This document shows positions 1-27,024 of a DNA stretch of 64,000 bases, one piece after another. The notes under the pieces were generated by a model, which worked only from the letters and a program-made list of their open reading frames with translations, made no database searches and was not told the DNA's origin. Positions within the stretch are counted from its first letter, which is position 1; each line of letters opens with the position of its first letter. The stretch is from Candidatus Woesearchaeota archaeon (lineage in GTDB: Archaea; Nanobdellota; Nanobdellia; Woesearchaeales; 0-14-0-80-44-23), in assembly GCA_038874135.1 (NCBI GenBank), contig JAVZCZ010000001.1, forward strand, positions 416,001 through 480,000. Reading direction: 5' to 3'. Position numbers and translations under genes: made by a program.

Positions 1-81
1 GCTGCTGAGCTTTTTCTTGTACTTCTCCAAAAGCTCGTCCATCTGAGGATTTGCGCCTTCGCTGCCCGGATTAACAGCCAT
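1..81 (-). CDS. Partial gene (5' end only), probably a TadB/TadC-like type IV pilus membrane platform protein
   Basis: ATG at 81, 5 bp after the ATPase stop. Reads MAVNPGSEGANPQMDELLEKYKKKLSS off the window edge, resembling the N-terminus of 17039..19174 (IEEIEAEVKKRLAS). Confidence 0.5.
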   Translation of the reverse strand, partial: MAVNPGSEGANPQMDELLEKYKKKLSS

Positions 82-86
82 CTTGT

Positions 87-2423
87 CTACTCCCTCGCTA
101 GCTGCTTTGCAAAATTGGTTTTTATGTAATGCTTAAGCCAGCTTTCCCACTTGACAATCACTCTTTTGCTGTCTATAGAGCCAACCTCATTTTTTATCTC
201 ATCGCATATCCTGTGGAACTGGTCATTTGCAACAACAACATGCTGTGCCTCCATAAGCTCAGGAATCTTAAGCTTGTTTGCATACTGAACTATTAGCTCC
301 TTAGTTTTTGCTCTCAGAAGGATGTTGTCCCAAACAGCATCCCAGTTGCCAGCCCACTCTTTCACATTTCCAGCTATCGCCTTGAGCACGTCAGAGTCGC
401 CATTTATAAGGTCATCAGTTGGCTCCAGCTGGTCTGTCTTTGCCTGGTATTTCATAAGGTCAGAGAATCCGTTCTCAGAAAGAGGGTCGTCATTCCAGAA
501 CTTTCTAACTTCTGTAATCTGAGTAACGCGCCTCCACCTGTGCAGCTGGTCTGCACTCTTCAAGGGGTTGGCAACTATGATTATATCCGTAGCCTTAAAG
601 CTGGTCTTTGGAACTTCCAAGTCGTTAACAACCCTGTCAAACACGCCGTACGGGCTGTCTCCATGTATTGTTCCGGCAACAACATTTGCAAGAGCGCCGA
701 CCCTCATAGCCTCATAAAGAGCCCTTGCCTCTGTGGAGCGGACCTCTCCTACAATCAGGCAAGAATCTCCAAGCCTAAGAGTTGTTCTTATACCCTCATC
801 AGCAGCCACTTCTGAAGTGCCCTTAGTCATCGCACTGGCGACCTTCATTGACTGAATGTTGTAGCCAATCTGCTTTAAAGGCCTAACCGGAAGCTCCAGA
901 GTGTCCTCTATTGTTATTATCCTAAGCTTCCTCATAATCTCAGTCATGACAGAGCCGAGCAGAGATGTCTTTCCAGCAGACCTAGTACCAGCCACAAGCA
1001 TTGTTCTTGAGCCGTCTACCAAGAAGCTAATTAGTCCCGCTGCCAGCGGATTTATCATCCTGGTATTGATAAAGAGGGGAAGCGTCCAGGGCTTGTCCCT
1101 ATGCCTCCTGAAAGCATAGGCCAATCCGCTCGGGTTTAACGGCTCGGATATTACTGCAACCCTGGCGTTTGCTCCTGGGAGAGTTATCTCAGTATCTAAG
1201 ATGGGGTTTGCCTCATCCAGAGGCCTTCCCGACATCATTCTCAGCTTGGAAGCCCAAGATTCTGCTTCGCTTAGGGTTGGAATTATGTTAGTCATGCAGT
1301 CGTCAAAGTCCTGGTGCACTATGAAAACAGGACTCTGTCCCATGGGGCTGTTTATAGTTACATCCTGAATCTTATCATCCTGCAGCAGGACTTCAATAAG
1401 TCCGAAGCCCACTGTGTAACGCACAAGTATATCTGTCAGTTCATCAATCTCTTTTGTTCTAAGCTTCATGCTCTGATATGCTGCCAGTTCTTCTATAAGG
1501 TCGTGTCCTACATTGTAGAAGACGCGCCTCATACGCTCAGGATCCACAAATTCGGATTTACTGGGCTTGTGCTCTGCAATTATCTTCCTTGCAGCATCCA
1601 ACAAGTCGTACTTTTCTTCAGAGAGCTTAAATTCTGGAGGGGTCATATGGTATAATTTCTGAATTGAGTCGTTAAGCGCAAAAATTGTTATTTCAGTATT
1701 GTCTCCTACCATGTAGGTATCCAACTCCTCTGCATTCTGAGGGTAAGATGCCATGAGCTTAGTGAACATGAAATCTGGTTTTATGGTTGGAGAGAATATC
1801 TTTCTATAAACATCCCTGTTACCGAGGATGTATCCAGAAAGGTATGGCTTTGCCAGTGCAACCAACTTAGTTTTTTCAAGGGAATCCTTAAGATATGTTA
1901 AAAGGCCTATAAGCTTCTCTTCGCAGTTTATGCACTCTGTTGAGTTTGTCTTGTCCTGGTTTATTCGCTCCCTGCGAATCATCCTTGTGAGCTGAACATA
2001 CGCTCCTAAGGGATCGCTCTTTATAAGATTATAAACTATGTCGTGAAGCTCGTTGTACCAGCGCGTCACGCACTTGTTGCAGTTCGGATTAAATGAAGAG
2101 AGGTAGTGATAGCTTATCAGGTTCTTCTGCCGGACAATCTCATTGTAGATCTTTGCAATTTCTAGAAGCATCTCAACCTGGTTGTAGTCATATTCAAAAT
2201 CCCTCTTCTGAGATAGAACTATTTTAGTTGCATCCGAGTTCTCAATTAGGCGCTCCACCATAGAAGCCATACAGAAGGCGTTGTCCTCAATTGAGGGGGG
2301 ATAATTGCACTTTGAACAGTTTACTCTTAGAACATTATCCTCTCCTTCCCTCTGCATCTCAGAAGGACAATTGACACCTATCTTAGCTTCATCCACTACC
2401 AATCCCTCTTTTTCCCATGGCAA
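87..2423 (-). CDS. Type II/IV secretion (VirB11/CpaF/ArlI-like) pilus assembly ATPase with Cys-rich N-terminal extension
   Basis: Walker A GTRSAGKTS, Asp box ITIEDTLEL, Walker B LIVGEVR, His box GTIHG; N-terminal CxxC pairs. Confidence 0.92.
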   Translation of the reverse strand: MPWEKEGLVVDEAKIGVNCPSEMQREGEDNVLRVNCSKCNYPPSIEDNAFCMASMVERLIENSDATKIVLSQKRDFEYDYNQVEMLLEIAKIYNEIVRQKNLISYHYLSSFNPNCNKCVTRWYNELHDIVYNLIKSDPLGAYVQLTRMIRRERINQDKTNSTECINCEEKLIGLLTYLKDSLEKTKLVALAKPYLSGYILGNRDVYRKIFSPTIKPDFMFTKLMASYPQNAEELDTYMVGDNTEITIFALNDSIQKLYHMTPPEFKLSEEKYDLLDAARKIIAEHKPSKSEFVDPERMRRVFYNVGHDLIEELAAYQSMKLRTKEIDELTDILVRYTVGFGLIEVLLQDDKIQDVTINSPMGQSPVFIVHQDFDDCMTNIIPTLSEAESWASKLRMMSGRPLDEANPILDTEITLPGANARVAVISEPLNPSGLAYAFRRHRDKPWTLPLFINTRMINPLAAGLISFLVDGSRTMLVAGTRSAGKTSLLGSVMTEIMRKLRIITIEDTLELPVRPLKQIGYNIQSMKVASAMTKGTSEVAADEGIRTTLRLGDSCLIVGEVRSTEARALYEAMRVGALANVVAGTIHGDSPYGVFDRVVNDLEVPKTSFKATDIIIVANPLKSADQLHRWRRVTQITEVRKFWNDDPLSENGFSDLMKYQAKTDQLEPTDDLINGDSDVLKAIAGNVKEWAGNWDAVWDNILLRAKTKELIVQYANKLKIPELMEAQHVVVANDQFHRICDEIKNEVGSIDSKRVIVKWESWLKHYIKTNFAKQLARE

Positions 2424-10582: not shown

Positions 10583-11020
10583 TCACTCTATCCTAACCAA
10601 TTTTTTCTGGTAATCGTAAGAGATTATCGCCTTGTTGCTGGAGTCAAATGTTATTTGAAAGTTCGTCATGCCTGCCTTTGTTAACGAATCGCTAATCTGC
10701 TCCTTTCTGACTGAGCTGCAGTCCGCGGTTATAATGTAGCATATCGGCTCATTGCCTTGTTGAAGGCGGCCTTGCTTTCCGTTTTCGTTACAGAGACGGG
10801 CGTGCTTCACAATCTCACTTAGGAATTCGCTGCATGTAACATTTATTTTTTGTATGTCCCCTACTGGCTGTTCTGAACCGCATTCACCTGTTAGTCTGCA
10901 GATGAACTTCTGCGCACTTAGGCTGTTCTTCGCAATTATGCCGATTACTACGAAGACGGTTATTGTTGCCAGAAATATCAAAAAAGCGTATTGTATGGTC
11001 ATATCTGCTCTTCTTTTCAT
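10583..11020 (-). CDS. Class III signal peptide (prepilin-like) protein
   Basis: MKRRA|DMTIQ followed by a hydrophobic stretch; several Cys. Confidence 0.75.
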   Translation of the reverse strand: MKRRADMTIQYAFLIFLATITVFVVIGIIAKNSLSAQKFICRLTGECGSEQPVGDIQKINVTCSEFLSEIVKHARLCNENGKQGRLQQGNEPICYIITADCSSVRKEQISDSLTKAGMTNFQITFDSSNKAIISYDYQKKLVRIE

Positions 11021-11434: not shown

Positions 11435-13552
11435 CTAGGTCACTACAACCTGGCGTTTAGTTGAATCGTATTCAACAAGTATGTTTGTATTTGTATTTAT
11501 ATCTTTTGTGAAATTTATGTTGTCCGAATCTCCGCAGCCGTACTCCGAATCTCCAATTATGTGACACCATTGTCTATCCATCAGAATTTTTGCAATGTCC
11601 CTCTCAGTTACTGCCCTTATGAAGTTATATTCTCGCGGCACTCCCAGTTCTGAGCAGAAGAAACTTGTTTTCTCCTGCCCGTATCTTGACTTGCGCCAGC
11701 AGTCTGCAATTGCTGAAACTATCTCCTCTTTAACAGGATACTTCGTATAGCTGAGTTTAAGATCGTCTGCTATCAGCTGAGTTGGGCCTGCTGTGCTAAT
11801 CTTAAATGTAAATGTACAGTAGTCAGATGAACAGCTTTTTTCAAGCTCTTTAATTTCATCTGTCAAAGAAACTGTTTTTGACTCAGCATTTAAGTTTGTA
11901 GCTGTCATTACATCTTTACCTTCAATAGACAAGGTTACCCCTTCTGCTTTTATGTCGTAGACGATTTTTAGGTGGCTAATGCTAATTGTGCCGTCCCTTC
12001 CAGAGGACACTTCTAAAGGTATTATGCAGTTGCCTTCCTCATCTGGAGAGCATTCTGAGAGAGCTCTCTGCAGGGAATTTACAAAACCCTGCCCTGAAAC
12101 CTTCCACGGAGAATTCACATTGTTTAGCTCGTCTTGGCGGTAGGCAAATTGTACTCCTGAAATGGAAAGCCCTATCTGGTTTGGATAGTTTGAGATAACC
12201 ATCTGCTTAACTGCCTCTGCTAATGCTGCCTCATCCCTAAATCCAAAGATTTTCCCCCCTGTAGAGGAAGCCAGCCTTTTCATCATACTAATTATCTGCC
12301 TACAATTGTTAATCACAACCTCGTTACAGTTTGGCGCTTGAACATTTATGCAGCTATAGGGATGTGAAGGACAGCATCCATCATAACAGCCTGGCCCGCT
12401 TCCTATGCTGAAGCCTTCTGGAGTGGTGCTGTCATCGTCTCCATAAACAACATTAACAAATATATTGTTCTGCTGAGCCTTCTGTATTGCCCTGTCGATT
12501 ACTTCTTCCTCGTTTCCACTCATAGATACTGGCGTGGGGTATTTAGGAGGCGCATCATTAGAGCAGGGGCTGAATACAACTGATTGATAAACAGCCCCGT
12601 TGGGGTCCGAGTCGCTTATGAGGATTTCAATCCTCTTCGCATCTGAGAGCCAAGCATCTTCACCTTCTATCTGCGAGGATAGATAGTAAGATGCTACACC
12701 CCAAGCTTCAGACGGCTGGTCTAAACCTATAGTTGAGTATGAACAACCAGCTGAAGAAAAGGAAAATTGGCATGTATTCATTGGAAGGCCTGTTTCTCTG
12801 AGTTGGTCGTATGTTATTTTCAGGTTCTTCGCTGGAATGGGACAGTTTTTTGCCACATTGGTTTTTCCGCACGGGTCTCCAACGCCGATTGCGTAGACTC
12901 TAACTCTGTACTCTTCTATGTGCATTGCTGACAAGATTTTTGAAATATTACTTACTATTGAGCATACTGCACTCCACTCGTTAGTCATGCTTCCTGAAAT
13001 GTCTATTGCAAAAGCGATATCGGTCTTTGTTGGATAGTTGCTTCCGTAAAGCTCTATGGAAGCATTTTTTATTATTGCATATTTTGGAATTTTTATTAAG
13101 GCCGTGTTGGTTCCCCCTCTCAATGGATAGGGTGGCAGAGTAATGTTTGTTTCTCCAGAAGCAAAGGTTCTGAGCACAATGTTGTGAGGGGCCCCTATAA
13201 CTATTGAAGCGTTTTGAAGAATTGCATCCCTGTCCACTGTTATCTGAAAGGTCCGTTCAAGACGAGAATTACTGAATCCTAAGATTTTAGTGCTGCTCCC
13301 GTCTGAAAACTCAGATGATATAATCTGTTCTGCCTTTATGATTTTGACATCGTGAGGCCCAACGCCTGCGCAGAAGCTGTCCATTCGCGTGTTGTAAAAA
13401 CGGGGAACATACTTGTGTGCAAGTTTGCAGTAGAACTCCTTACCGCTCCTCATCTGAGCTCCAAGGGAAAGCATAAGGGCTATTGCAAGAATGGTTATCA
13501 CTATTGAGAATACTACATTTATTGCAAGCTCACCTCTTTTTTTTACAGACAT
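11435..13552 (-). CDS. Prepilin-like protein with inserted vWA domain (candidate adhesin)
   Basis: KKRG|ELAIN signal; DIAFAIDISGSM (MIDAS DxSxS), ILISDSD, LASSTGG; Cys-rich C-terminal domain shared with two neighbours. Confidence 0.82.
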   Translation of the reverse strand: MSVKKRGELAINVVFSIVITILAIALMLSLGAQMRSGKEFYCKLAHKYVPRFYNTRMDSFCAGVGPHDVKIIKAEQIISSEFSDGSSTKILGFSNSRLERTFQITVDRDAILQNASIVIGAPHNIVLRTFASGETNITLPPYPLRGGTNTALIKIPKYAIIKNASIELYGSNYPTKTDIAFAIDISGSMTNEWSAVCSIVSNISKILSAMHIEEYRVRVYAIGVGDPCGKTNVAKNCPIPAKNLKITYDQLRETGLPMNTCQFSFSSAGCSYSTIGLDQPSEAWGVASYYLSSQIEGEDAWLSDAKRIEILISDSDPNGAVYQSVVFSPCSNDAPPKYPTPVSMSGNEEEVIDRAIQKAQQNNIFVNVVYGDDDSTTPEGFSIGSGPGCYDGCCPSHPYSCINVQAPNCNEVVINNCRQIISMMKRLASSTGGKIFGFRDEAALAEAVKQMVISNYPNQIGLSISGVQFAYRQDELNNVNSPWKVSGQGFVNSLQRALSECSPDEEGNCIIPLEVSSGRDGTISISHLKIVYDIKAEGVTLSIEGKDVMTATNLNAESKTVSLTDEIKELEKSCSSDYCTFTFKISTAGPTQLIADDLKLSYTKYPVKEEIVSAIADCWRKSRYGQEKTSFFCSELGVPREYNFIRAVTERDIAKILMDRQWCHIIGDSEYGCGDSDNINFTKDINTNTNILVEYDSTKRQVVVT

Positions 13553-13557
13553 GTCAA

Positions 13558-15750
13558 TCAGCTCACAATTATTGCTCCTTCCTTTTCAGAGTATTCTATA
13601 AGTACATTTCTTCCCGGAATTATTTTCTGAATTCTCCATTTTAACTGGTCGTACCTTCCGCAGTTAAAATCTGAGTTTCCAAGTGTTTCGCAAAGCCCAT
13701 TTTCTTTTAAAATTTTCGTGATTTTGTCTTCATCTACATCTTCAACATAGGTGCAAGTTGAAGGTATAGTGATCTCATAGCAGAGCAGGTCTGAGTTGCG
13801 CTCTCCAAATCTTGCTTTTTCCCAGCAAGCAAGCGAGTATGCTGCAATAACTTCAGAAACGCTGCACTGCCCATATTCTATTTCAATTCCTGAGAGCACA
13901 ATCTCTCCAGCGTCCTGTGAAGCTGCTGAGATTGTTACTTCGCATTTGTCCTTTTTGCAATTAGCTGCCTGTGAAACCTGTTTGGTTATGTCCAACTGTA
14001 TTGCTGGAGCATATGGCTTCATCACTTCAAAGTTTCCCACATCTACTCCAAAGACGTTTATTAGCACTCCTCTTATAGGAAGTTGGTAGTTTATACTTAG
14101 ATTTTCAATTGAGATTATTGGCTCAGAATTGAATATCATAGCGCTTATCTTCAGGGGAATTATGCAATTTCCATCCTGATCTGGAATGCACCTTCTCAGC
14201 CAGGAGTTCAATTTTTCAGAACTAATATGTGCTGTCCTGCCACTTTTGAATGAGCCGCTGCTCTGCCAGTCTGGCTGTGCCGAATTGCACGAATAAAATT
14301 TTATCCATGAAGATTTTTTCAAGCGAGAAATTATGGCGTTAATCATGAAGTTTGTATCTCCAAACTCCGATCCGAGCTGTTCTTCAATATTTGGAGCGAT
14401 GTAAATCACGCTGCCATTGCCGTATGAGAACTCTATAACTGCCTGTCCAGGTCTTCCATAGTTTCGGTCTGCACATTTTAACTTAAGGTCCTTGTCAAGA
14501 GGAGATGGATTAGTTGAGTTGTAAACGAGGTCCGCAAGGACTTTTACCTTGGAGTTTGAATAGTTTACCTCAACGCAAGGAGTGTTATCATATATCACAG
14601 AGTACTGCTTGTTTGAGCTTACTCCGTATTGCGCTTCTGCCTGTGCGGAGAATGTTATTCTTTGGCTCTCTCCACACCTGCCTCCAAAACCTACAGTTTC
14701 CCTGCACGGAACTATTGATTTATCATTGCAATTTTTTGGAATTGTTGCGTTGCACTCAGTTTTGTAATCTGCCTCATCAGGACTATTGCCTTTTGAAGGA
14801 ATAAGTTGGTCTTGCTTCTTAGCCTGTAAAAGCCCCGGGCAGTTCTGGTATGGAGTTATTCTTTTGAAGTATGGCGTGATTTCTTTTTCAGGAAGTTGAG
14901 ATTCGCTGAAGAGTTCAACTAGAAGGTTTATTGCCCAGCCGGTTACCATCAGCGTGTTTCCTTCTGCTATCCAATCCTTTAAGTATTCCCTGTCAGCACT
15001 ATTTCCGATGGTTGTATTAAGCCCGCTTCCCACTATGAGCACAGAATGTTTTGCGAGTGTCTCTTTCCAGTTTGGGTCTCCCTTCCAGCACTTACTCTCA
15101 TCATATGAGATGAGATAATAGTAGAGATATTTTCTCACATCATCAAAAATTCCGGAGCCGTACTGCTGGCCGCACTTGTTTGAGTAGCCCGTGAAGACAA
15201 GCACTTCTGAACTTTCACCTTCCTGTTTAGAGTAGAAGTCAAAAGAAGCGTTAAGAACGTGGGCGTCCTTGGGAAGTTTCAGAAATAGAGTTTGCTCAGC
15301 TTCTTTTGAGAAGTCCAAAACTTTTGATGTGCTTCCATCGCTCAGAGTATTAACCCTTCCGAGAGAATATCCGAATATTGAAATCTTTGCTCTAGTTATG
15401 TTTGTAGCTGGGACTAGAATGTGAGCGGTAGCAGTTAAGCCAGGGCCTACACTTAAAACTTTTCTTTCAGAACCATCTGAGAAGCTTCTAAGGATCACCT
15501 TTTCCATTTTGATTGTGCTGTTTTGCAAGCTATCATCTTGTGAGCAATATGCTTCTTCAGCTGTTCCGGAACTGAGCGAGAACATCACTTTTAAGGGCGA
15601 AAGTATACTGCAGTAAACGGAGCGGGATAAATACGGAAACTTTGAAAAGATTAACAGGAGAAAAATTGAAACTGCAATTATTCCTACAAATAGTGTAAAT
15701 GCAAGAGTTATTGAAAACTCTCCTTTCCTGCTCATTAGTTTTAGCTTCAT
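13558..15750 (-). CDS. Prepilin-like protein with inserted alpha/beta (possibly GATase-I/ThuA-like) domain
   Basis: SRKG|EFSIT signal; central VLIVGSG..LKDWIAEGNTLMVTG..YGNGSVIY segment; paralogous flanks and C-terminus with 11435..13552. Confidence 0.75.
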   Translation of the reverse strand: MKLKLMSRKGEFSITLAFTLFVGIIAVSIFLLLIFSKFPYLSRSVYCSILSPLKVMFSLSSGTAEEAYCSQDDSLQNSTIKMEKVILRSFSDGSERKVLSVGPGLTATAHILVPATNITRAKISIFGYSLGRVNTLSDGSTSKVLDFSKEAEQTLFLKLPKDAHVLNASFDFYSKQEGESSEVLVFTGYSNKCGQQYGSGIFDDVRKYLYYYLISYDESKCWKGDPNWKETLAKHSVLIVGSGLNTTIGNSADREYLKDWIAEGNTLMVTGWAINLLVELFSESQLPEKEITPYFKRITPYQNCPGLLQAKKQDQLIPSKGNSPDEADYKTECNATIPKNCNDKSIVPCRETVGFGGRCGESQRITFSAQAEAQYGVSSNKQYSVIYDNTPCVEVNYSNSKVKVLADLVYNSTNPSPLDKDLKLKCADRNYGRPGQAVIEFSYGNGSVIYIAPNIEEQLGSEFGDTNFMINAIISRLKKSSWIKFYSCNSAQPDWQSSGSFKSGRTAHISSEKLNSWLRRCIPDQDGNCIIPLKISAMIFNSEPIISIENLSINYQLPIRGVLINVFGVDVGNFEVMKPYAPAIQLDITKQVSQAANCKKDKCEVTISAASQDAGEIVLSGIEIEYGQCSVSEVIAAYSLACWEKARFGERNSDLLCYEITIPSTCTYVEDVDEDKITKILKENGLCETLGNSDFNCGRYDQLKWRIQKIIPGRNVLIEYSEKEGAIIVS

Positions 15751-15751
15751 T

Positions 15752-16627
15752 TTAACTTATTCTTATCTTCTTTGAGTTGTTTAAAAACTCTATCAGGATT
15801 GAGCCCTGCGGATGTATTGAAGTTAAATTCCATTCTATGTCATCTGAATCACCACACTCGTAGTCCAAGTTAGAGATTGCCCCGCATAAACCGTTATCAC
15901 GGAGATATTTAGTAAGCGTTGACTCATTTATGTTAAGCGGCGGACAGTTCCTTATCAGGATTGCCGCGCACGGAATATTTTCAGAGTAGCTTCCGAAGTT
16001 TGCGCTCTCCCAACAAGAGATTGTTGAGGCAGCAATTGCTTCAAGGAGGGGGCAATCCTTATAAGTTAGGGAGAGATCTTTAATCCAAACCTTGCCACTG
16101 CTCCTTACACTTACATTTAAAATGCACGGGTACGCCTTGCATTTTGAGGAGCATTCTGCTAAATTTTTAACAAGTGAACCAGGGCTAGTATAATATTTTG
16201 AGGGAACTGCTCCTTCTATCTGCCAGTCAGCATTTTTAGAACCGCATATGTAAAATTCTGCACTTCCAGACTCTGCCCTTGCTGAAAAGGAAAACCCGGT
16301 GAGGGTAGAATTTATTGGCAGGATGAAGTAGAAGGTGCTTTCACCATTAGAAGTAAAAGTTGTTGAATTGTCCGCAAACCTCTTAACAAAAATCCTGCTA
16401 GGTTTTACTTCAATGAAGTGCAGCATTGAAAATTCCCTGCAATAATCGGAACTTTGCCTTATTCCAGAGGGGAGGAATGATGCAGAAGCCACATAAAAAA
16501 ATGTTTTGCAGTAAACCTGTTTTGCAAATACGGGCATCTGAAATGAAAAGAAGGATATGAGCAACACGATTGCTAAAACTGCTGTCAATCCGCCAAAGAT
16601 TGCACTTATAGTAATTTCAGCCCTCAT
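15752..16627 (-). CDS. Prepilin-like protein, short paralog of the two preceding genes
   Basis: Likely start MRA|EITIS at 16627 (overlapping the upstream stop; ORF track starts at 16648). C-terminal CWESANFG..C..GLCGAISNLDYECG domain. Confidence 0.75.
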   Translation of the reverse strand: MRAEITISAIFGGLTAVLAIVLLISFFSFQMPVFAKQVYCKTFFYVASASFLPSGIRQSSDYCREFSMLHFIEVKPSRIFVKRFADNSTTFTSNGESTFYFILPINSTLTGFSFSARAESGSAEFYICGSKNADWQIEGAVPSKYYTSPGSLVKNLAECSSKCKAYPCILNVSVRSSGKVWIKDLSLTYKDCPLLEAIAASTISCWESANFGSYSENIPCAAILIRNCPPLNINESTLTKYLRDNGLCGAISNLDYECGDSDDIEWNLTSIHPQGSILIEFLNNSKKIRIS

Positions 16628-16974
16628 TCCATCCTCCTCACAAGGCACTTTGAGGAGCTGCTGTAGATCTTAAGAGTGTAGCTTCCAGGTGCCAAACTGT
16701 GAAATCCCTGAAACTCAAAATTGGAAGAGCTGTTAAGAACCCCTTCAGTTATCTCTGCCGTTATAAGGAAGCAGTCCCTCTCTGCAGGACCCCTGCACAA
16801 TTCGCAAAGACGGCTTATCTTGTGGTATAGTTGGCTGGCACTTCCCGAGAAGTTTTGAAGTTCGTCCTCTCGCGTTGGCTTTGCACCTATCACTTTGAAA
16901 GCAAAAGCCATAAGCAGGCCCATCACTGCTACTGCCACTACTAGAATTCCAACCTTCAGGTAAGTATCTTCCAT
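16624..16974 (-). CDS. Small pilin-like protein with N-terminal TM helix
   Basis: Hydrophobic N-terminus, CxxC..C pattern, translational coupling with the next gene. Confidence 0.65.
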   Translation of the reverse strand: MEDTYLKVGILVVAVAVMGLLMAFAFKVIGAKPTREDELQNFSGSASQLYHKISRLCELCRGPAERDCFLITAEITEGVLNSSSNFEFQGFHSLAPGSYTLKIYSSSSKCLVRRME

Positions 16975-17038: not shown

Positions 17039-19174
17039 CTAGCCAGTGGCTGAAATTCCTGAAGCCACCAGCATTTTTAGGAAAGTTGAACCTATCACGG
17101 TTACGAATACGTAGACTATAATTGCAATAAGCACATTCTTGGCTATCTCCGCATCTCTGGATATCTCATCAAAGCCGTTCTCAACGCCGTTTGCAAGCTG
17201 CGATAATAGGAACACTGCTTCTATGGTGTAGATGCCTACTAACACCTGAAATATTGGCGGGGGAGTCACCCGTGTGAAGTTTATAAATTCAGTAAAAAAT
17301 CCAGTATCCTGAGAGCCCAATGCGCTGCCTGCTAGCTTCTGCATTACGAGTTCCAATCTTCCCAACATGTCATAAAGGGATTTAATAATTACAAGGGTCA
17401 ATGAGCCTACGATTCCTGCTATGAACGGTGCTAGGAACTTTGCCTGCATCCTTACTGAGGTGACTGTCTCTTCCAACAAGTCGTATATGAGCTCTTTTAT
17501 CTTCTTCACATTGTCAAGGTAGACTGCAATCTTCTGCATTATATTGTATATAACCTGAGAGCCCTTCCTGGCGCTTTCAGTAAATATCCACATTATCTCT
17601 TTTAAGAGGGTGGACGGGTACTCTTTTATTATGCCCTCTTGAGGGTGAAAGACTGCCTGTCCAAATGTCAGCCCGAGTGTCCGCATCTTTTCAAGAATCC
17701 TATTAAAAAGGTGAAATATCTGCCTCTTTTTTAAGTTCATAACCTGATAATTGTTTACGAAGTTTTCAACTGCGATCTCAACCGGAATATTCTCTGTAAA
17801 CTGGTTTGCTATGCTATACAGAGAGGCGTTTAAATCTTCTTCAATTTCAATTATCTCGTCCCTAAGCTTTATCTTCTGAACGCTCCTTCCATAATAGAAG
17901 AGAAATATGCCAACAGCAATTCCAACGGGTATTGTCAAGGTCATAAACATAACGCTCGACTCGTATTCGTGAGCCAGGGCTGGAGGAGGCGAAGCGTTTG
18001 CCGGAAGCTTGCTGGCTTCCAGGAATACGGGAATTGTAGCAGTGAAAAGGTGAAAAAGCCCCGGGCTCATTATCAAGAGTGCAGCTAAAATGGCAACTGG
18101 GAGGACTGGAACAAGGTAAGACTTCTTTCTAACCAGCAGTCGGTATTTTCCCTTCGGAGGAAGATTAGGATTTCCAGAGATGTCTGGTGCTGAGAAAGCT
18201 CCTGGCCTCTTTGCAAGTATCCTGTTGGAAAAGAAGTATATCAGGGAGGGCAGTATTACGATGTAGCCGAAAAAGAGGTAGGATATTTTAATACTTGAAG
18301 ACATGAATACGCTTATGATTGGAAAAGCAATAAGTCCTATGAGTGGTAGCATTAAGCCGAAGGTGTTTATTATCATTATCGGATTCTTCAAGTCGTGAGC
18401 GTAGTATTTCATCTTTTCATAAGTGTCCTGGAGTAGAGTGGAAAGGGCCTTATCAAGTATTGCAGATTGGTGTTCCTTGTCCGGCTGGGTGGTTACGCTT
18501 AGAAGTATCATAAACGACTTTACAAAGTCGGGATTCCTCTTGAGCCAGAGCTCCATATAAAGTTTGAAGCCGTCGTGAATTGAGGATATCTTTCCACCAT
18601 CTAAAAGCCAGAGTATTCTCTTGAAGTCTCTGCCGAGTGGTCCATTAAGATGCTCTGTGGCAAAGGCTATTGCGTTTTCCAGCACCGGATTCACGCGCAT
18701 GTAAATTGTTATATAGAGGAGAGCTAGTAGTGATTCCTGTTGGGCTCTTATCTTGGTAATCTGACTTGAGAATGCTGGGTATGTGTAAGCTATATAAGCT
18801 AAGAACATTCCCGTGAAGATAAAGAAGAATGCCAAGTCAATCCAGCCCAGAATTATTAGAGGAAGTGCTGACATAATGCCGAGGAGCACTGTTAGGATTG
18901 CAGCTGCTAGCACCTGCTTAGGTCTTATGTGGAGCCTTGCAATTTGGATATCCTCATACATTTCCGGTTGAGATTCATCTTTTACATCTATAAAAGAAAG
19001 AAGTTTTCCTGCAAAATCAGCATATTTTTCAAAAAAAGTGGGAAGTGCAGCCTCCTCTTGCTCTTCCCGAGCAAATGAGGAAAATTGACTGGAAACAAAT
19101 TCCGACTGCTGCCCCTGCCCGGAAGCCAGCCTCTTTTTAACTTCTGCTTCTATCTCTTCAATGCTTTTAGGCAT
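17039..19174 (-). CDS. TadB/TadC (type II secretion F)-like membrane platform protein of a type IV pilus system
   Basis: 711 aa in two repeated halves (NPVLENAIAFA..GPLGRDF; NIPVEIAV) with multiple TM helices; embedded among prepilins. Confidence 0.8.
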   Translation of the reverse strand: MPKSIEEIEAEVKKRLASGQGQQSEFVSSQFSSFAREEQEEAALPTFFEKYADFAGKLLSFIDVKDESQPEMYEDIQIARLHIRPKQVLAAAILTVLLGIMSALPLIILGWIDLAFFFIFTGMFLAYIAYTYPAFSSQITKIRAQQESLLALLYITIYMRVNPVLENAIAFATEHLNGPLGRDFKRILWLLDGGKISSIHDGFKLYMELWLKRNPDFVKSFMILLSVTTQPDKEHQSAILDKALSTLLQDTYEKMKYYAHDLKNPIMIINTFGLMLPLIGLIAFPIISVFMSSSIKISYLFFGYIVILPSLIYFFSNRILAKRPGAFSAPDISGNPNLPPKGKYRLLVRKKSYLVPVLPVAILAALLIMSPGLFHLFTATIPVFLEASKLPANASPPPALAHEYESSVMFMTLTIPVGIAVGIFLFYYGRSVQKIKLRDEIIEIEEDLNASLYSIANQFTENIPVEIAVENFVNNYQVMNLKKRQIFHLFNRILEKMRTLGLTFGQAVFHPQEGIIKEYPSTLLKEIMWIFTESARKGSQVIYNIMQKIAVYLDNVKKIKELIYDLLEETVTSVRMQAKFLAPFIAGIVGSLTLVIIKSLYDMLGRLELVMQKLAGSALGSQDTGFFTEFINFTRVTPPPIFQVLVGIYTIEAVFLLSQLANGVENGFDEISRDAEIAKNVLIAIIVYVFVTVIGSTFLKMLVASGISATG

Positions 19175-19192
19175 AATACACCACTATGTTTT

Positions 19193-20995
19193 TCAAGATA
19201 CTGAAGGTTGATCTGGGGGAGGTGGAGGTGGGTTAGGCGGATTGTATGGAGGACTTGGTGGCTCGGGTGTAGGATTTGGCTCGTCCTTGTTATGAACAAG
19301 TATTCCTTCAGCATAGAAGTCATTCACGCTTTCTATGCGTTTGAGATTGTAGGTTCTTATTTTTGTAGGGCTGCACTCTAATGAGATTACCCTTTTCAAA
19401 ATAATGTTTTTCCCATCAAAACTGAATGCATAATCCCCTCTTTCAAGAGGTAATACTTTGAGATTTGGCGTCTCCCCTTTTGAATTCTCAGGAGAGATTG
19501 AAGCCCAGCCCTTTAGAGTGTATATTGGATGCTCGTCAGTAAGTCTTAAAAATGAGCCGTCTTCAAAGGATACGGTGCAAAGGTGGTCCCTATATGGAGA
19601 TTCAAGCTCCAGCACCCTTGCTGGAACATGCTTTCCAGTTTTAAAATCATAGCCGAGCACCAGCTCTCCAACTCTGACATCTTCAATATTTTTTAAGCTT
19701 CCATCAGCCATTCTTATTCTAGTTCCAGCAGGAAAACAGGAGGAAGGCGTATCACCTGTTGGCTCACAATGTTCTGGGCAGTCGCATTCGGGCTCTGGCG
19801 GGTTCGTAGTTCTGGTGAGGAATACGTGCACTAAAAGGTTGAACCTCAAATTTTCAAAACCGCTTTCAGAGATGGGATGCTGATACTTTGTGTCAGTACA
19901 GGTTATATTCATTATAAAGTCTATATTGTGCCTCTCTCCATAACCGTAGGGGGAGAATGGGCAGGTTATCAGAGTGTTAGGTTCAAGCTGTGTTCCGAAA
20001 GGAATCTCAACTTGGGGCTGCTCTGGAGGGCTTGGGATGTTCTGAGGATTTTCACATTTTCCGTCAGATTTTTGCCCGCTCAAACAGTTCTGCTTAAGAT
20101 CTGGATAAGGGCATCCTGAAGCTGGCCAGATAACTCCGCATCCTGCCGGGCAGTTTATAGCTGCGCTGCACAATATTTCGGTTTTTGCATAAAGGCATGG
20201 AAGAGTGTAGGTACACTTTACATATGAATCAAATGAGTCTTGAAGATGCTTCAATGACGAATCTGCTATTTGTTTAACATATTCCTCATTTATAACATAT
20301 GCTGGACATGCACTTGTTCCAACTCCGTAATAAGTCATAAGTTTATCACAGCTATATTGCGATACGATGTTCTGCCTAGCCCATTCCTCAATCTTCCTGT
20401 AAAGGTACCAGTAGCGCAGGGGATAAGCATATGACTTGAACGCATTCTGCTCCTGAACCTCTTCTCCAGAATCAACTTCCTTAACAACTGCTGGAATTGT
20501 ACCCCTTCCCTCAGCCAAGAAGCCTTCATCTGCGCCTGCGGAACCGTCCATCTCATAAAGGTCTGTATCTGAAACGAGTATTTCAATAGATGATATGTCA
20601 CCCGCATCTTCAATCTTAAATTTTCCAAGATCCTCTCCACGTATTGAAGCAAGATACTGGTTAGTGTAGATGATTGCAAACCGGCTAAGATTACTCTTTG
20701 CTTCCCAAAGTTTAGGCGGGATTGAAGAGGAGTAGCTTATCCAGTATGAGTTCTGAGCACCTGCTCCAGAGCTTGCGCTGTCATAGGATGCACGTATAAG
20801 AGCGTCTCTGAAAGAGTGAAAGGAGTAAGTTCTCAGAATTTCAGAGTAGCTGTTCAGCTGAGATTTCTGCTCTTGAGAAGTTGTAAATTCAACTACAGCC
20901 TTCCTATTCTGAAGATATACCAGGTAGAATATCAGAATTACAAGTGCCACGAAAAAGAGCAGCATAAATGTTGATGCGCGCCTATTGAACTTCAT
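19193..20995 (-). CDS. Prepilin-like Cys-rich protein with C-terminal Hint (intein-like) domain and Pro-rich tail
   Basis: Likely start MKFNRRA|STF at 20995 after SD GAGGTGA (ORF track starts at 21016). Contains CFPAGT...TDEHP...YNL...GILVHN. Confidence 0.85.
   Translation of the reverse strand: MKFNRRASTFMLLFFVALVILIFYLVYLQNRKAVVEFTTSQEQKSQLNSYSEILRTYSFHSFRDALIRASYDSASSGAGAQNSYWISYSSSIPPKLWEAKSNLSRFAIIYTNQYLASIRGEDLGKFKIEDAGDISSIEILVSDTDLYEMDGSAGADEGFLAEGRGTIPAVVKEVDSGEEVQEQNAFKSYAYPLRYWYLYRKIEEWARQNIVSQYSCDKLMTYYGVGTSACPAYVINEEYVKQIADSSLKHLQDSFDSYVKCTYTLPCLYAKTEILCSAAINCPAGCGVIWPASGCPYPDLKQNCLSGQKSDGKCENPQNIPSPPEQPQVEIPFGTQLEPNTLITCPFSPYGYGERHNIDFIMNITCTDTKYQHPISESGFENLRFNLLVHVFLTRTTNPPEPECDCPEHCEPTGDTPSSCFPAGTRIRMADGSLKNIEDVRVGELVLGYDFKTGKHVPARVLELESPYRDHLCTVSFEDGSFLRLTDEHPIYTLKGWASISPENSKGETPNLKVLPLERGDYAFSFDGKNIILKRVISLECSPTKIRTYNLKRIESVNDFYAEGILVHNKDEPNPTPEPPSPPYNPPNPPPPPPDQPSVS
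19289..19738 (-). other. Hint domain (150 aa), no homing endonuclease
   Basis: Block A CFPAGTRIRMADGS, block B LRLTDEHPIY, block F/G TYNL..FYAEGILVHN; the +1 residue is Lys. Confidence 0.88.
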
Positions 20996-21005
20996 AAAAA
21001 TCACC

Positions 21006-21524
21006 TCAGCCTGCAATCACAAGCAGTGCACCCCTCTCGTAGCTTCCCGAAGAGCAGGGTCTTGGAAATCTGAAATCATAGGATACATATTCAGTGAATT
21101 CTGGAGTACCAGATTCGGAGATTAAAGAGGAGGTGAGAAAAAGCGGTTTAGAGCCCTGGCTGTCTGATTTTAGGATTAGAGCCCAAGCATTTTTCCCGTA
21201 TGTGGAGTCAAGCATTGCTCGTAAAGATTGAATTATGTTTATCTGTCCATTCCCGTAGTTTGCAGTTTCCACTCCGTAACAGGAATAAACACCCAAAAGT
21301 TCTTCTATTGGGATTCCCAAAGAGTTTCCTGCTGCATCCTTGGCGGTTATGTATGGAAATGAAAATCCTGTGGAGGCAACTCCTGATACGCGCATATCTC
21401 TAAGTATTGCTTCTGCCCTGTTAAGAACAGATGCAGAGGTCTGCATCCTCACAAAGATTGCAATCAGAACTATTGTTGCCACAAGAACTATTATGCCTAC
21501 GAACTCTGAGGACTGCGCCCGCAT
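21006..21524 (-). CDS. Class III signal peptide (prepilin-like) protein
   Basis: MRA|QSSEF followed by a hydrophobic helix. Confidence 0.75.
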   Translation of the reverse strand: MRAQSSEFVGIIVLVATIVLIAIFVRMQTSASVLNRAEAILRDMRVSGVASTGFSFPYITAKDAAGNSLGIPIEELLGVYSCYGVETANYGNGQINIIQSLRAMLDSTYGKNAWALILKSDSQGSKPLFLTSSLISESGTPEFTEYVSYDFRFPRPCSSGSYERGALLVIAG

Positions 21525-21573: not shown

Positions 21574-22308
21574 TCAGTATTTTACTCTTACTGAATTTGA
21601 ACTTTCATTATAAGAGATTAGCACAAGAGATTTTCCTTTGGGAATTGTGAAGTTTCCAACACTGCATTCAAACCTAGGAAAGAAAAGGTATTCCCCAACA
21701 TAGAAAGTGTTTGTAAAGTTATCATACCTTATGTTATAGTCTGAAATAAGAATGTGCTGCATCCCCTCATGGCTCCTGCAAGCCTGTTTTATCTTGCCAT
21801 AAAATGAGGGGATGCTGCCGATGTAAGCGGTAATGGATGCAAATCCGGGATTTATAGTTGGCACCTCCGAAGGGTATCTTATAGCGATAGGAAGTGCTAT
21901 TGTTAAAGTATCCTCTGCAAACTGCGGCTCATTCAAAAGGCCTATGCGCCACTCCTTCCCCGTAAGACTATCTACAACTCTGAATGTGTAGAGAAAGTCA
22001 TACTGCTCTACGCAGGATATGTCCTCGTTACCCCTGTTGTAGTAGTCCAGCTTTTGCTGGTATAATACCGCCTGAGACGCAGTGGTCCAGCTTCCCTCTT
22101 TCTCCTTATATGCGAAACAATCGCTGGCAATCATCGCCTTGAGAAATGAGGTTGCAAGAGCATAATATTCAGATGTAAACTTGGCTTTCTGAGAAGAGGT
22201 TCTACTTCCTAGCAAGGTCATTATTACAAACATTAAAAAAATAACCGTGAATATGGCGAATATTGACTTTATCGTAAGATCCTCAGAGCCCTTTTGTGAA
22301 ATCCTCAT
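21574..22308 (-). CDS. Class III signal peptide (prepilin-like) protein
   Basis: SQKG|SEDLT followed by a hydrophobic helix; SDCFAY motif. Confidence 0.72.
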   Translation of the reverse strand: MRISQKGSEDLTIKSIFAIFTVIFLMFVIMTLLGSRTSSQKAKFTSEYYALATSFLKAMIASDCFAYKEKEGSWTTASQAVLYQQKLDYYNRGNEDISCVEQYDFLYTFRVVDSLTGKEWRIGLLNEPQFAEDTLTIALPIAIRYPSEVPTINPGFASITAYIGSIPSFYGKIKQACRSHEGMQHILISDYNIRYDNFTNTFYVGEYLFFPRFECSVGNFTIPKGKSLVLISYNESSNSVRVKY

Positions 22309-23087
22309 CTTTCACCATTCACCTTCGCTCTTATTATCAAAAAAGCCAACACTAAAATTATACAAATTGCTACTAACGCAGCAATGAGCAGCTTGGAAGA
22401 GTTATCCTCTCTTTTCTGAATAGTTTTAATACAATCGGGATCTTTGTTTGGAGCGCAGTCAGGATCACAGATGCCGTCCTTAACCATATCGCAATAGCCG
22501 TCCCTGCTTCCAGATTTGCAGTCCTGCGGACAGCTAAGATATGTTTCAGTAGGATCGCAGACTGAGTTACCACAGCCTGAAGGGGATATGTTGATAGGGT
22601 TGGTTTCAGTTGGAGTGCTTGTGCTGCAATCTGCTGGACAGCTTATTTCACTTTCATATTTCTCACAAATGCCGTTTACTCGGCAAAAATTAGAAGTTTT
22701 AAAAGAAAAAATTTCTACACCTGATTTAAAGATTTTTATAGTGTCCGCATTGGCAAAAAAAGGAACTTTTAGTTCAATCAGAGTATTATTTGAGCTGATA
22801 GATACTGGCGGATCACTCATTATATTAAAACTAACAAAAAAGGGAAGTGAATATAACTCTTTATCTTCAGAATACACTTTTAGGTAATATTTTGTAGGAG
22901 AGTCTGTTGGAATCGTTTTATACCCTTCAAGCACTTTAGCATATGTTAAGTTTATTTCTCCAGTATTCCAGAATAAAATCTGCATGTCGTAGATTTTTTC
23001 ATATGCCAGAGTCATATCTATTGAAATAAGTAGAAATAACAAAACTGTTGCACTTATTATGAGATTTTTCATTTTCATCAGCCACAA
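22305..23087 (-). CDS. Secreted Cys-rich protein with C-terminal TM anchor
   Basis: Sec-type signal; C..NG.C...E....CP.DC twice and DGICDPDC motif; C-terminal hydrophobic helix. Confidence 0.78.
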   Translation of the reverse strand: MWLMKMKNLIISATVLLFLLISIDMTLAYEKIYDMQILFWNTGEINLTYAKVLEGYKTIPTDSPTKYYLKVYSEDKELYSLPFFVSFNIMSDPPVSISSNNTLIELKVPFFANADTIKIFKSGVEIFSFKTSNFCRVNGICEKYESEISCPADCSTSTPTETNPINISPSGCGNSVCDPTETYLSCPQDCKSGSRDGYCDMVKDGICDPDCAPNKDPDCIKTIQKREDNSSKLLIAALVAICIILVLAFLIIRAKVNGER

Positions 23088-25129
23088 TATTGTTGTATTA
23101 TTCTACTTCTTAAATAAGTATAGCTTGTGGAAGTGAATGCATATCCTTCGCTGCATCCATAACGGCATGCATCCATAGAGCACATTATGCTATCCTTTTC
23201 TGGAACATTTGGACAGCAATAAAGCTCCTCTCCTTCTGGGACATAACAATTATCGTAGCAGTCCCTTCCGCCAACAGTATACCAACCGCTAGGGCAAGAA
23301 CTGCACCTGCCTCCTCCATAACCTTCATCACAAAGTCCAAAGGTGTGTCCCATTTCGTGAGTGCACACATTAGTAATGCGAGTACCTGAAGATACGAGTG
23401 CAGGGTAGTTTAGGTAGGTATATCCGCCAATACAACTTTCTCCTTCATTATACACGCAGTCCCCTGCAACTACACCTATGATTCTATCATACTTTCCCGC
23501 GTACCCCCAGGAAGTTGCACATTGTTGTATTATGTTTAGCGCATTACCATTTCTTCTGTCAGTTTCCGATACTGGACAAATTTTAGTATCTTCAAATAAG
23601 TAGCACACTCTATCTGGACATTCCTTGAATGGACTTAGCGAAACCCAAGCGTCTCTCGCTGCCTTGGCAACATTTCCAAAGTTGCTTATAGGATCTATTT
23701 TTATAAATAACATAGTAAACGAGCAGCTGTTTTTGCATGTATTTCCATCCCAGCTTTTTCCATTTGGACAGCAAGCCTTGTCATTACTATTCTTAGGATT
23801 TGACATGCATTTCAAGCCAGAGTTGCACTCTGCATCGCACTCACACCTTTGCCCTTCTGCTTTTCCTCCTGGTGTGATGCAGTATAAGCCGTTCTGCTTT
23901 TGGCACTTTTTTGTTCCGGAGGGACAGCATCCGCTGCTTTCTGCTCCTACACAGTTTGGACAGCATTCAGCAGTGCACTTGCAGTCATTAGGAGAGTTTT
24001 GGCAGTTTTCGCTGAATGGCTCACTAGTGTTGCAGATGCCATCATTTTTGTAGTTTGTGCACGCCCCGTTTTTGTAGTAGCTGTCTGGGGGGCAGCATCT
24101 AAATGTGCCAAATCTTGTATCGCAGATTAGTTTTTCTCTATCTTGTGAGCATTGGCAGTCCTGAGTGCACTGCTGCCCCTTTGCTGATAGCTTCGTCTTT
24201 TCAATGCAGCCTCTTTCATCTAGGAAGTTTTGAATTGCTGGGCAGTCCGCCTTGCAGATCTGTGAATCTGAGCATTTGCAGTCCTGAAAGAGGGGGTAGT
24301 CTAAGCAGCTTTCTCCCCTGTTTGGCTCGCAAATGCCATTCCCCTTGTGAGGGCAGTCTGCATCATACTGGGTGCAGTCTGGATCGCAAACTCCATTGGT
24401 GCCGAGGCAGTCTGGATCACAGATGCCATCCTTAATATTGTTAGTTGCTGGGTCACAGATTCCGTCATTTTCATAGTCTACGCAGTCAATATCATAAACG
24501 CCCTTGTCAAAGTTTGTATAGCATGCTGGAATGCAGATCTTGTCTGCATCTGCAGGGTCTATTCTACCATTCTTGTTGGTGTCCAAGCAGTAGGGGTTGC
24601 ATACTGATTTTTCCATTGGACTCTTGCAAGCTGGATCGCAGATTCCGAGGGCAATACAGGCAGCATCGCACTTGTCATCTTCAAGGTTGCACTCCTCAGC
24701 TGCATTCGCCCTCGTTATTATGATGTAGTTATCTTTTTTGTAGATGTGTATGATTCCTGAGTTTTCAATATTTGATGGTATTACTACTGAGTTTCCTGGA
24801 AAGAAGTATGTTGTGCTAGTGAGGTTGTTGATTGCAAAATGAGCCAGAATCCTGTTCTGGCTAATGTTTATGGTATAGATTAGTGGGTCTTTGAGCGTTA
24901 TTACGTATTCAACATTTGCGGGAGTGGATGCTGCTTTTTCTATTGCACTCTTTAAATCCTCAACTACTGAGATTGTGTAATCAATCTCAACCTGCTTCGC
25001 CTGTTGGAGAGCCAGGTTTCTTAGGACGCCTACTATTGCAAGAGAGATGAATATCATTCCTATTATAAGGATTGAATTTGTTAAAGTGGCGCCTCTTCTT
25101 CTGGTCCGGTTATTCAAAAATATTTTCAC
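23078..25129 (-). CDS. Prepilin-like Cys-rich protein with C-terminal zinc metalloprotease (metzincin-like)
   Basis: RRRG|ATLT signal; DGICDP repeats; DTNKNGRID loop; HEMGHTFGLCDE and SIMC Met-turn. Confidence 0.82.
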   Translation of the reverse strand: MKIFLNNRTRRRGATLTNSILIIGMIFISLAIVGVLRNLALQQAKQVEIDYTISVVEDLKSAIEKAASTPANVEYVITLKDPLIYTINISQNRILAHFAINNLTSTTYFFPGNSVVIPSNIENSGIIHIYKKDNYIIITRANAAEECNLEDDKCDAACIALGICDPACKSPMEKSVCNPYCLDTNKNGRIDPADADKICIPACYTNFDKGVYDIDCVDYENDGICDPATNNIKDGICDPDCLGTNGVCDPDCTQYDADCPHKGNGICEPNRGESCLDYPLFQDCKCSDSQICKADCPAIQNFLDERGCIEKTKLSAKGQQCTQDCQCSQDREKLICDTRFGTFRCCPPDSYYKNGACTNYKNDGICNTSEPFSENCQNSPNDCKCTAECCPNCVGAESSGCCPSGTKKCQKQNGLYCITPGGKAEGQRCECDAECNSGLKCMSNPKNSNDKACCPNGKSWDGNTCKNSCSFTMLFIKIDPISNFGNVAKAARDAWVSLSPFKECPDRVCYLFEDTKICPVSETDRRNGNALNIIQQCATSWGYAGKYDRIIGVVAGDCVYNEGESCIGGYTYLNYPALVSSGTRITNVCTHEMGHTFGLCDEGYGGGRCSSCPSGWYTVGGRDCYDNCYVPEGEELYCCPNVPEKDSIMCSMDACRYGCSEGYAFTSTSYTYLRSRIIQQYCG

Positions 25130-27022: not shown

Positions 27023-27024
27023 TT

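Follow-up and report, generated by a model that had tools for sequence, protein, structure and literature searches.

We analysed three adjacent minus-strand genes in a 64,000-nucleotide stretch of the genome of a Candidatus Woesearchaeota archaeon (contig JAVZCZ010000001.1, positions 416,001 to 480,000; hereafter the window, the numbering of which is used throughout). The products of these genes are labelled P0001 (705 amino acids, aa), P0002 (730 aa) and P0003 (291 or 298 aa, depending on the start codon). The results of our analysis support the presence, in P0001 and P0002, of two homologous jelly-roll sandwiches, each interrupted at the same loop, one of which lies inside the other. The best explanation of the three proteins is that they are extracellular, disulfide-rich surface proteins, and we infer for them an adhesin role and pilus assembly, that is, a function as minor or tip subunits that present adhesins on a type-IV-filament-like appendage. 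The reading as a whole (nested, disulfide-rich, adhesin-presenting filament subunits) is given a probability of about 0.7. The host is a DPANN archaeon with a complete genome of 909,956 bp (~0.91 Mb) and an archaeal small-subunit rRNA match of 1430 bits.

Shared modules and split sandwiches

The gene for P0001 occupies positions 11435-13552, that for P0002 positions 13558-15750, and that for P0003 either positions 15752-16627 (291 aa, ATG at 16627) or positions 15752-16648 (298 aa, GTG at 16648). Judging from the sequence, the ATG is the likelier start of P0003, because it overlaps the upstream stop codon as ATGA, has a GGAGGA just upstream and gives a protein of 291 aa, exactly as long as the database copy P0004. 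Neighbouring genes are spaced by 1-5 nucleotides or overlap, and the three genes are part of a run of minus-strand genes that extends from ~30272 to 10096.

BLASTP comparison of the three proteins showed homology at both ends and no match between the centres. P0001 and P0002 were aligned on the C-terminal side over residues 494-705 and 514-730, respectively (E = 4e-29), and on the N-terminal side over residues 3-236 and 6-235 (E = 4e-10). The C-terminal end of P0003 matched those of P0001 (E = 3e-13) and P0002 (E = 3e-22), and its N-terminal end matched those of the same two proteins with E values of 1e-4 and 1e-5, respectively. We also verified the motifs on which the original prediction had based its claim of a common N-terminus and a common C-terminal cysteine domain: YC past the hydrophobic helix, F.DGS or F.DNS, C..C ahead of the last sandwich strand, and CW...G...C...C...CG.D. 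At the sequence level, these comparisons confirmed that P0001, P0002 and P0003 are paralogues with a common N-terminal helix module and a common C-terminal module of four cysteines.

Seven module hidden Markov models (HMMs), named N, S1a, S2a, vWA (von Willebrand factor A), S2b, S1b and C, were cut from an alignment of 23 full-length orthologues. The N module of P0001 (aa 1-71, positions 13340-13552) contains a class-III-signal-like sequence, a hydrophobic helix and the conserved residues YC42 and C61. It is followed by the outgoing half of the outer sandwich (S1a, aa 72-122, positions 13187-13339), which was delimited by HMM, hhalign, structure search and two-chain folding, and by the outgoing half of the inner sandwich (S2a, aa 123-172, positions 13037-13186), which was delimited by HMM, hhalign and structure search. 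After the vWA head (aa 173-455, positions 12188-13036), the chain continues with the return half of the inner sandwich (S2b, aa 456-535, positions 11948-12187, with C501 and C509), the return half of the outer sandwich (S1b, aa 536-604, positions 11741-11947, with C574 and C579) and the alpha/beta C module (aa 605-705, positions 11438-11740), in which C618, C633, C663 and C673 are invariant.

P0002 has a frame of the same type around a different head (aa 178-480, positions 14311-15219). Its outgoing halves S1a and S2a (aa ~77-177, positions 15220-15522) and its return halves S2b and S1b (aa ~481-629, positions 13864-14310) were located by BLASTP to P0001, HMM matches and strand pattern, and its C module (aa 630-730, positions 13561-13863) by BLASTP and HMM. 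P0003 consists of an N module, a single unsplit sandwich (aa 78-198 in the 298-aa numbering, positions 16055-16417; HMM and hhalign) and a C module (aa 199-298 in the same numbering; BLASTP and HMM). A search of the whole genome with the module HMMs found the modules in no genes other than these three. The S1a and S2a segments matched each other's HMMs in nearly all members, and so did S2b and S1b. Because the outgoing modules cross-match and the return modules cross-match, the repeat structure reflects real homology and not chance; the two outgoing and two return sets that had been predicted for the 705- and 730-aa proteins, and the single set of each kind predicted for the 298-aa protein, were recovered by these matches.

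We then joined the two halves of each sandwich and aligned the resulting profiles with the unsplit sandwich of the one-unit family, a comparison made with sequence profiles alone and independent of any structure model. Joined S1a and S1b aligned with the unsplit sandwich at 99.0% in hhalign (E = 2e-18, 118 columns), and joined S2a and S2b at 99.2% (E = 2e-19, 113 columns), in both cases through the junction. The joined S1 and joined S2 profiles aligned with each other at 99.6% (E = 5e-24). The N and C modules, when joined in the same way, aligned with stand-alone relatives of 174-209 aa at 100% (E = 2.8e-48, 169 columns). Since the joined halves align end to end with the unsplit domain, they represent one domain type of ~120 residues that is split at the same loop, past strand 4, in both layers.

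Predicted folds of the stalk and its heads

The AlphaFold2 (AF2) model of P0001, made with 23 orthologues in the alignment, had a predicted local distance difference test (pLDDT) value of 84.4 and a predicted template modelling (pTM) score of 0.71. In this model, both return halves have the order strand-strand-strand-helix-strand-strand, and the strand at 521-543 is unbroken across the border between S2b and S1b. Alignment of every PDB representative to the whole model showed that a contiguous domain of BcsB (6yg8_A, residues 68..206) matched residues 74..604 of P0001 (Z 9.7, 108 residues, 2.5 Å), and that the N-domain of PNGase F (1pgs_A, residues 4..136) matched residues 124..533 (Z 9.5, 110 residues, 2.9 Å). 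Since one small PDB domain covers 74..604 or 124..533, the outgoing and returning halves make up one sandwich in the model, which is the co-folding into single domains for which an AlphaFold model had been suggested as a check. In a Foldseek search with the same model, all 50 best matches were integrin beta chains (best E = 6e-8). The integrin beta3 chain 3zdx_B (residues 57..425, hybrid-betaI-hybrid) aligned with residues 123..525 of P0001 (Z 11.6, 262 residues, 6.6 Å), and the integrin beta7 chain 9p95_B aligned with residues 123..530 over 244 residues.

When residues 64-122 and 536-606 of P0001 were folded as two chains with ESMFold2, the interface score ipSAE was 0.65, with a best value of 0.00 among three controls. 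Of 80 solved complexes, 58 attained this mark of 0.65, as did 2 of 110 mismatched pairs. Contact agreement among three runs was at least 97%, the partner pLDDT was at least 81, and the antiparallel strand pairs joined residues 100-105 with 585-580 and residues 116-119 with 561-559. The halves of one sandwich may pass this test partly by their likeness to solved sandwiches; the result indicates that the predictor treats the outer halves as one domain and is not a measurement.

The insertion of beta-sandwich domains in one another, which was the core of the original prediction, is thus supported by four independent lines of evidence: the alignments of joined halves, the PDB domains that span the P0001 model, the match to the integrin headpiece and the two-chain fold. 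An arrangement of linear, contiguous domains, in which each of the beta segments, N-side or C-side, would fold by itself and the nesting would be an artefact of prediction, appears extremely improbable: all of the three-dimensional evidence does consist of predicted models, and predictors may lean toward known nested proteins such as integrin beta, but the end-to-end alignment of joined halves with an unsplit 120-residue domain is free of models, a half of 45-50 residues and four strands is too small to form a stable sandwich by itself, and two predictors concur (AF2 on the full-length protein and ESMFold2 on the two chains, with controls at 0.00). A crossed pairing of S1a with S2b and of S2a with S1b was also considered and rejected. 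The model places residues 123-172 with 456-533 and residues 74-122 with 536-604, the S1a/S1b pair folds alone, and the linkers are too short for the crossed arrangement.

The proposed architecture would start from a base made of the class-III-signal-like N-terminus, the hydrophobic helix and the C-terminal alpha/beta module of four cysteines, which is found alone in some relatives. The chain would exit this base at one fixed point, build the stalk and return to complete the base. In P0003, a single jelly-roll sandwich would sit at the exit point, and in P0001 and P0002 the loop between strands 4 and 5 of the outer sandwich would hold the second, homologous sandwich, the same loop of which would hold the globular head. 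The outgoing and the returning chain would cross every domain boundary, one of them as a single continuous strand, and this crossing would give a stiff rod with the head at a distance of about two domains from the base. Of the predicted "telescoping stalk of 1 or 2 units", what was retained is a stalk in which one or two units are stacked and static, and we saw no sign of sliding.

The head of P0001 (aa 173-455) has a vWA fold in the model, with Z values of 9-12 to many vWA domains. The features that define a vWA domain, a Rossmann-like alpha/beta fold and a MIDAS (metal-ion-dependent adhesion site) of the DxSxS type with a distal Thr/Asp, were both found in P0001. Residues D184, S186 and S188 (MIDAS D184-x-S186-x-S188) and the S313-D-S-D316 segment were at least 90% conserved and nearly invariant among the orthologues; the head also contains D278, E282 and W284, and its last helix (441-452) runs directly into S2b. 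By its sequence, the domain is very divergent: the Pfam VWA model (PF00092) gave 15.8 bits against a cut-off of 23.8, and 1-2 of the 23 orthologues matched this model at E < 0.01. Comparison of the family profile with PDB sequences gave as best matches the betaI domains of integrins beta6 and beta8, with E values from 7.6e-5 (beta6) to 4e-3; vWA domains of anthrax-toxin receptors were matched at 0.009. The profile alignment to betaI comprised DxSxSM, D..E.W against D.PEGGFDA, and WR..SK.iiipiSDsD against WRNDSLHLLVFVSDAD, motifs that surround the metal sites.

The head of P0002 (aa 178-480) is predicted to adopt a class I glutamine-amidotransferase-like (flavodoxin-like) fold, with Z values of 13-16, so that the "alpha/beta GATase-like" payload predicted for the 730-aa protein holds at the level of the fold. 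The ThuA-like protein 4jqs_A aligned with residues 169..484 of the P0002 model (Z 15.4, 222 of 245 residues, 3.6 Å), and the head also matched domain B of GH42 (Z 15.9), the GIFT domain of IFT52 (Z 14.0) and OST48 (Z 13.4). It has the same fold as the ThuA-like, GH42 domain B and IFT52/OST48 GIFT domains and lacks the catalytic residues. Unlike ThuA-like and GIFT domains, with which it has no detectable sequence similarity (no Pfam match), it sits as an insert within a sandwich of the pilin-like frame and carries a Cys-rich loop of 60 residues. Feature leads from the Atlas for this head were DUF4960 and DUF2194; they are leads only.

The residue at the nucleophile elbow, a position assigned from the strand-helix junction of the model, is a glycine in P0002 (TGWAIN) and in four of the six full-length relatives, and a cysteine in two of the seven full-length sequences. 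No histidine of the head is invariant among these seven sequences. The flavodoxin-like fold of class I glutamine amidotransferases was therefore found in P0002 without their combination of elbow Cys, His and Glu, and on the model we read the head as non-catalytic. It is improbable that the P0002 head is an active enzyme (a glutaminase, a peptidase or a glycosidase accessory), which would make P0002 a displayed enzyme and not an adhesin. True glutaminases share its fold (Z 13-15), P0039 and P0059 have a cysteine at the elbow position, and other proteins of the cluster carry enzyme-like modules; however, the glycine elbow of P0002 and most of its full-length relatives and the variable histidines argue against catalysis, and the best full-length structural matches (ThuA-like, GH42 domain B, IFT52 GIFT and OST48) are non-catalytic.

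The "swappable tip domain" of the original prediction applies to the two larger proteins, with a vWA domain in P0001 and a GATase1/ThuA-like fold in P0002; the one-unit P0003 has no tip domain. Cys-rich loops of low confidence are present in both heads (P0001 aa ~376-410, positions ~12323-12427; P0002 aa 301-361, positions ~14668-14850), with a short similar stretch, NCN..V/I..C. These loops may be ligand-facing surfaces.

Filament context, family members and neighbouring genes

The N-termini of P0001, P0002 and P0003 (KRG-ELAI, RKG-EFSI and MRA-EITI, respectively) combine a charged leader with a hydrophobic helix and match the motif of archaeal class III signals. A FlaFind-like [KR][GA][DE] motif was found before the hydrophobic helix in 46 of the 83 family members having such a helix. 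The genome encodes an A24 prepilin peptidase (contig positions 265091-265426; PF01478, 39.5 bits), and the N-termini of at least eight proteins of the minus-strand run combine a hydrophobic helix with a leader that is short and charged. Just upstream of the three genes, positions 17039-19174 (minus strand) encode a 711-aa polytopic membrane protein that is a paralogue of a T2SSF-like platform: over its full length it is 30% identical (BLASTP, E = 4e-102) to a 735-aa polytopic membrane protein, encoded just outside the window at contig positions ~413874-416081, which gave a weak, sub-threshold T2SSF match (E = 0.017) and adjoins a T2SSE ATPase. This 778-aa T2SSE-family ATPase (positions 87-2423, minus strand; PF00437, E = 4e-15) is encoded ~9 kb from the three genes, with unrelated genes between. 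The 711-aa protein is probably the assembly platform of the cluster, and the ATPase is possibly its motor. The 711- and 735-aa proteins look like a very divergent platform family that was duplicated into the pilin-like cluster. It is from the N-terminal motif and this gene context that we infer the pilin identity of the three proteins.

As filament subunits, the proteins would be processed by the prepilin peptidase and assembled, as minor or tip subunits, by the platform paralogue of the cluster and the nearby ATPase. By means of the appendage, the symbiont would adhere to host cells or surfaces, with P0001 binding a ligand carboxylate in a metal-dependent manner and P0002 binding another ligand, perhaps a glycan.

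Several observations weigh against this interpretation. All of the structural evidence comes from predicted models. The AF2 model of P0002, made with 9 sequences, was moderate (pLDDT 74.4, pTM 0.47), and structure searches with it were filled by matches to the GATase-like head, so that the sandwiches of P0002 are supported by sequence and strand pattern; the N module of P0001 was modelled with low confidence (pLDDT 46-70). None of the Pfam and NCBIfam models, including those for pilins, VWA and integrins, reached its cut-off on the three proteins or on the unusual relatives that were scanned. No ATPase is encoded within the cluster, and the 711-aa platform paralogue has no T2SSF match of its own. 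Finally, in P0053 and P0072 the C module is preceded by an ordinary Sec-type signal, so that the frame does not depend on a class III signal.

The absence of an ATPase from the cluster and of a pilin family match, and the combination of a Sec-type signal with the same C module in P0053 and P0072, also favour another explanation, that proteins with the same nested architecture are stalked adhesins which an uncleaved N-terminal signal-anchor helix fixes in the cell membrane, and are not filament subunits. The base module is linked to pilins by its N-terminal motif and not by its fold, and type IV filament systems are reported to be rare in DPANN archaea (PMC13705601), which points in the same direction. 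We consider a membrane anchor a serious but less probable alternative, since the [KR][GA][DE] motif with its hydrophobic helix agrees with archaeal class III signals and recurs as the type of N-terminus of at least eight proteins of the cluster, since the cluster has a platform paralogue whose partner adjoins the T2SSE ATPase at a distance of 9 kb, and since an A24 peptidase is encoded in the genome.

An ordinary homologue search gave 4-5 close relatives for P0003 and P0002, one of which was named Woesearchaeota. An exhaustive search of representative proteins gave 95 relatives at E <= 0.001, 27 of these at E <= 1e-30; most of the family falls within a single archaeal order. The census of arrangements comprised relatives with the base only (N-C; 11), with one sandwich (24), with two sandwiches and a vWA domain (23), with two sandwiches and another head (6), and with an intermediate length and an ambiguous arrangement (3). 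P0036 (413 aa), P0046 (405 aa) and P0045 (444 aa) have N and C modules with two return-type matches; they may have two sandwiches without a head, or another arrangement. Strong multi-module matches (E = 1e-32 or better) were obtained in about 9 of the 201 genomes of the phylum, the present one included, and all nine belong to the same taxonomic order. Only the sandwich or vWA parts matched in the other genomes of the 201, in some cases within very large proteins. A related metagenome contig has the same gene order, with matching lengths of 743, 116, 304, 738, 689, 133, 150 and 161 aa.

A vWA domain between two sandwich halves was also found ahead of a Pfam T4SS_pilin domain (PF18895) in P0086 and P0087 (440 and 448 aa) and beside PKD domains in P0094; P0092 also carries the unit. 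Because it is found with the T4SS_pilin domain in P0086 and P0087, the sandwich-with-inserted-vWA unit is, on the evidence of domain matches, reused on a second kind of filament subunit.

The 145-aa open reading frame (ORF) at positions 10583-11020 was considered as a zero-unit member and rejected, as it matched over the N part only (HMM E = 3e-5; hhalign ~91%, 88-100 columns). The neighbours of 116, 136, 161, 172 and 177 aa gave no match to the base (N-C) module, and the 244-aa neighbour gave a weak match over the N part (69%). Since the match of the 145-aa ORF is confined to the N part and these neighbours do not match the base, the genome has no clean zero-unit copy. Atlas feature leads for the zero-unit relative P0052 were unnamed DPANN clusters, and they too are leads only.

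Other genes of the minus-strand run encode a 607-aa pilin-like protein (positions 19193-21016), which has a tail rich in proline and, at aa 426-576, a Hint/intein-like domain (Pfam Hint, E = 4.5e-7), and a 683-aa pilin-like protein (positions 23078-25129) with a long Cys-rich region, repeated GICDP motifs and a HEMGH metalloprotease-like end (weak Reprolysin_5 match). The latter gene is overlapped and followed by a 260-aa gene (positions 22305-23087, minus strand) with the same Cys motif. The head of the run (positions 25805-30272, minus strand) encodes an ABC ATPase, a CARDB/DUF11-type surface protein and two MacB/FtsX permeases. Elsewhere in the window, positions 3821-4477 (minus strand) encode a D-Ala-D-Ala dipeptidase (Peptidase_M15/VanY-like, E = 5e-24), in an archaeon; this enzyme could act on bacterial cell-wall fragments. 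A 444-aa ORF on the plus strand (positions 30345-31679) presumably resembles the PdxS-type pyridoxal-phosphate synthase subunit and is longer than usual, which suggests an internal insertion.

Comparison with integrins, sortase pili and modular pilins

The hybrid domain of integrin beta chains contains the betaI domain as an insert joined to it at both ends, and allostery is transmitted through the last betaI helix (PMC3840939). Comparison of P0001 with the integrin beta headpiece showed the same insertion of a vWA domain, at both ends, in a beta-sandwich, with corresponding boundaries (model 123..525 and beta3 57..425), and the last helix of the P0001 vWA domain similarly passes straight into S2b. 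However, P0001 has neither the PSI domain nor the four EGF repeats, the C-terminal transmembrane helix, the cytoplasmic tail or the alpha subunit of integrins, and the integrin beta model (PF00362) matched none of the three proteins. Outside the hybrid-like sandwich, P0001 has a second sandwich where integrin has the PSI domain, and the structural Z for the vWA part of P0001 alone (~11-12) is no higher than that for other vWA domains. P0001 is not a member of the integrin beta family, and the likeness is confined to the headpiece. A more far-reaching proposal, which we regard as unlikely, is that the sandwich and vWA head of P0001 share true homology with the integrin beta headpiece, including residues that match the MIDAS, the adjacent ADMIDAS and the synergistic SyMBS metal sites, and serve at the tip of a DPANN filament as an adhesin that is regulated by force or allostery; the three paralogues on their shared base would then make a mixed tip complex with heads at staggered heights of 0, 1 and 2 units. 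By the numbering of beta3, residues of the P0001 head may correspond to these individual metal sites.

RrgA of S. pneumoniae and GBS104 of S. agalactiae, tip adhesins of sortase-assembled pili, have two non-contiguous beta domains (D1 and D2), each formed from an N-side and a C-side segment, in which a vWA domain with a MIDAS (D3) is inserted (PMC7893114). P0001 has this arrangement of two non-contiguous beta domains around an inserted vWA domain, on a subunit that would likewise belong to a pilus. SpaC and PitA, tip adhesins of sortase pili, were among the structural matches of P0001, mainly via the vWA domain (Z 9.8 and 9.1, respectively), and an Atlas cluster with VWA and a Gram-positive anchor aligned with P0001 over residues 120-594. 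RrgA and GBS104 differ in having a Sec signal and an LPXTG sorting signal and in being joined by sortase, whereas proteins of the P0001 type have a class-III-like N-terminus; neither an LPXTG motif nor a hydrophobic C-terminal tail was found in P0001, P0002 and P0003, all of which end in the conserved C module. The sandwiches of P0001, moreover, match jelly rolls (the carbohydrate-binding domain of BcsB and the N-domain of PNGase F), and its host is an archaeon. The likeness is most simply taken as convergent. Because defining features of each were tested and not found, P0001, P0002 and P0003 are not members of the integrin, RrgA or amidotransferase families.

Functional modules are also added to bacterial type IV pilins. 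In PilB of Streptococcus sanguinis, a vWA module is grafted at the pilin's C-terminus by a short loop and presented at the filament tip, and in GspK an extra domain is inserted within the pilin module (PMC8179133). The vWA domain of P0001 is not a C-terminal graft as in PilB but an insertion at a depth of three layers, after which the chain runs back to finish the base. The survey of modular pilins (PMC8179133) concerns bacteria and proteins with the IPR012902 signature, whereas the P0001 family is archaeal and lacks a signature in InterPro or Pfam. It is recognised by none of the Pfam and NCBIfam models tried and would therefore escape surveys of modular pilins that rely on motifs. A literature search for DPANN pilins with von Willebrand domains found no paper, and a 2026 survey of archaeal type IV filaments makes no mention of vWA or modular pilins.

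To our knowledge, the molecules that make the contact between DPANN archaea and their hosts are almost unknown, and the P0001-P0003 family provides concrete candidates for them. Cultivated DPANN archaea all live attached to host cells (PMC11291902). Nesting of the RrgA and integrin types and modular pilins in bacteria are already known; what is new here is the combination of an archaeal class-III-signal base, a three-layer insertion, a series of 0, 1 and 2 stalk units and two alternative heads on one frame, with no database signature. The pilin-like frame would present its heads, which can be exchanged, on a stiff stalk with a set length, and one head has a predicted integrin-like, metal-dependent adhesion site. 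The double-nested design of integrin beta and of Gram-positive tip adhesins would thus have arisen, or been kept, on an archaeal class-III-signal protein.

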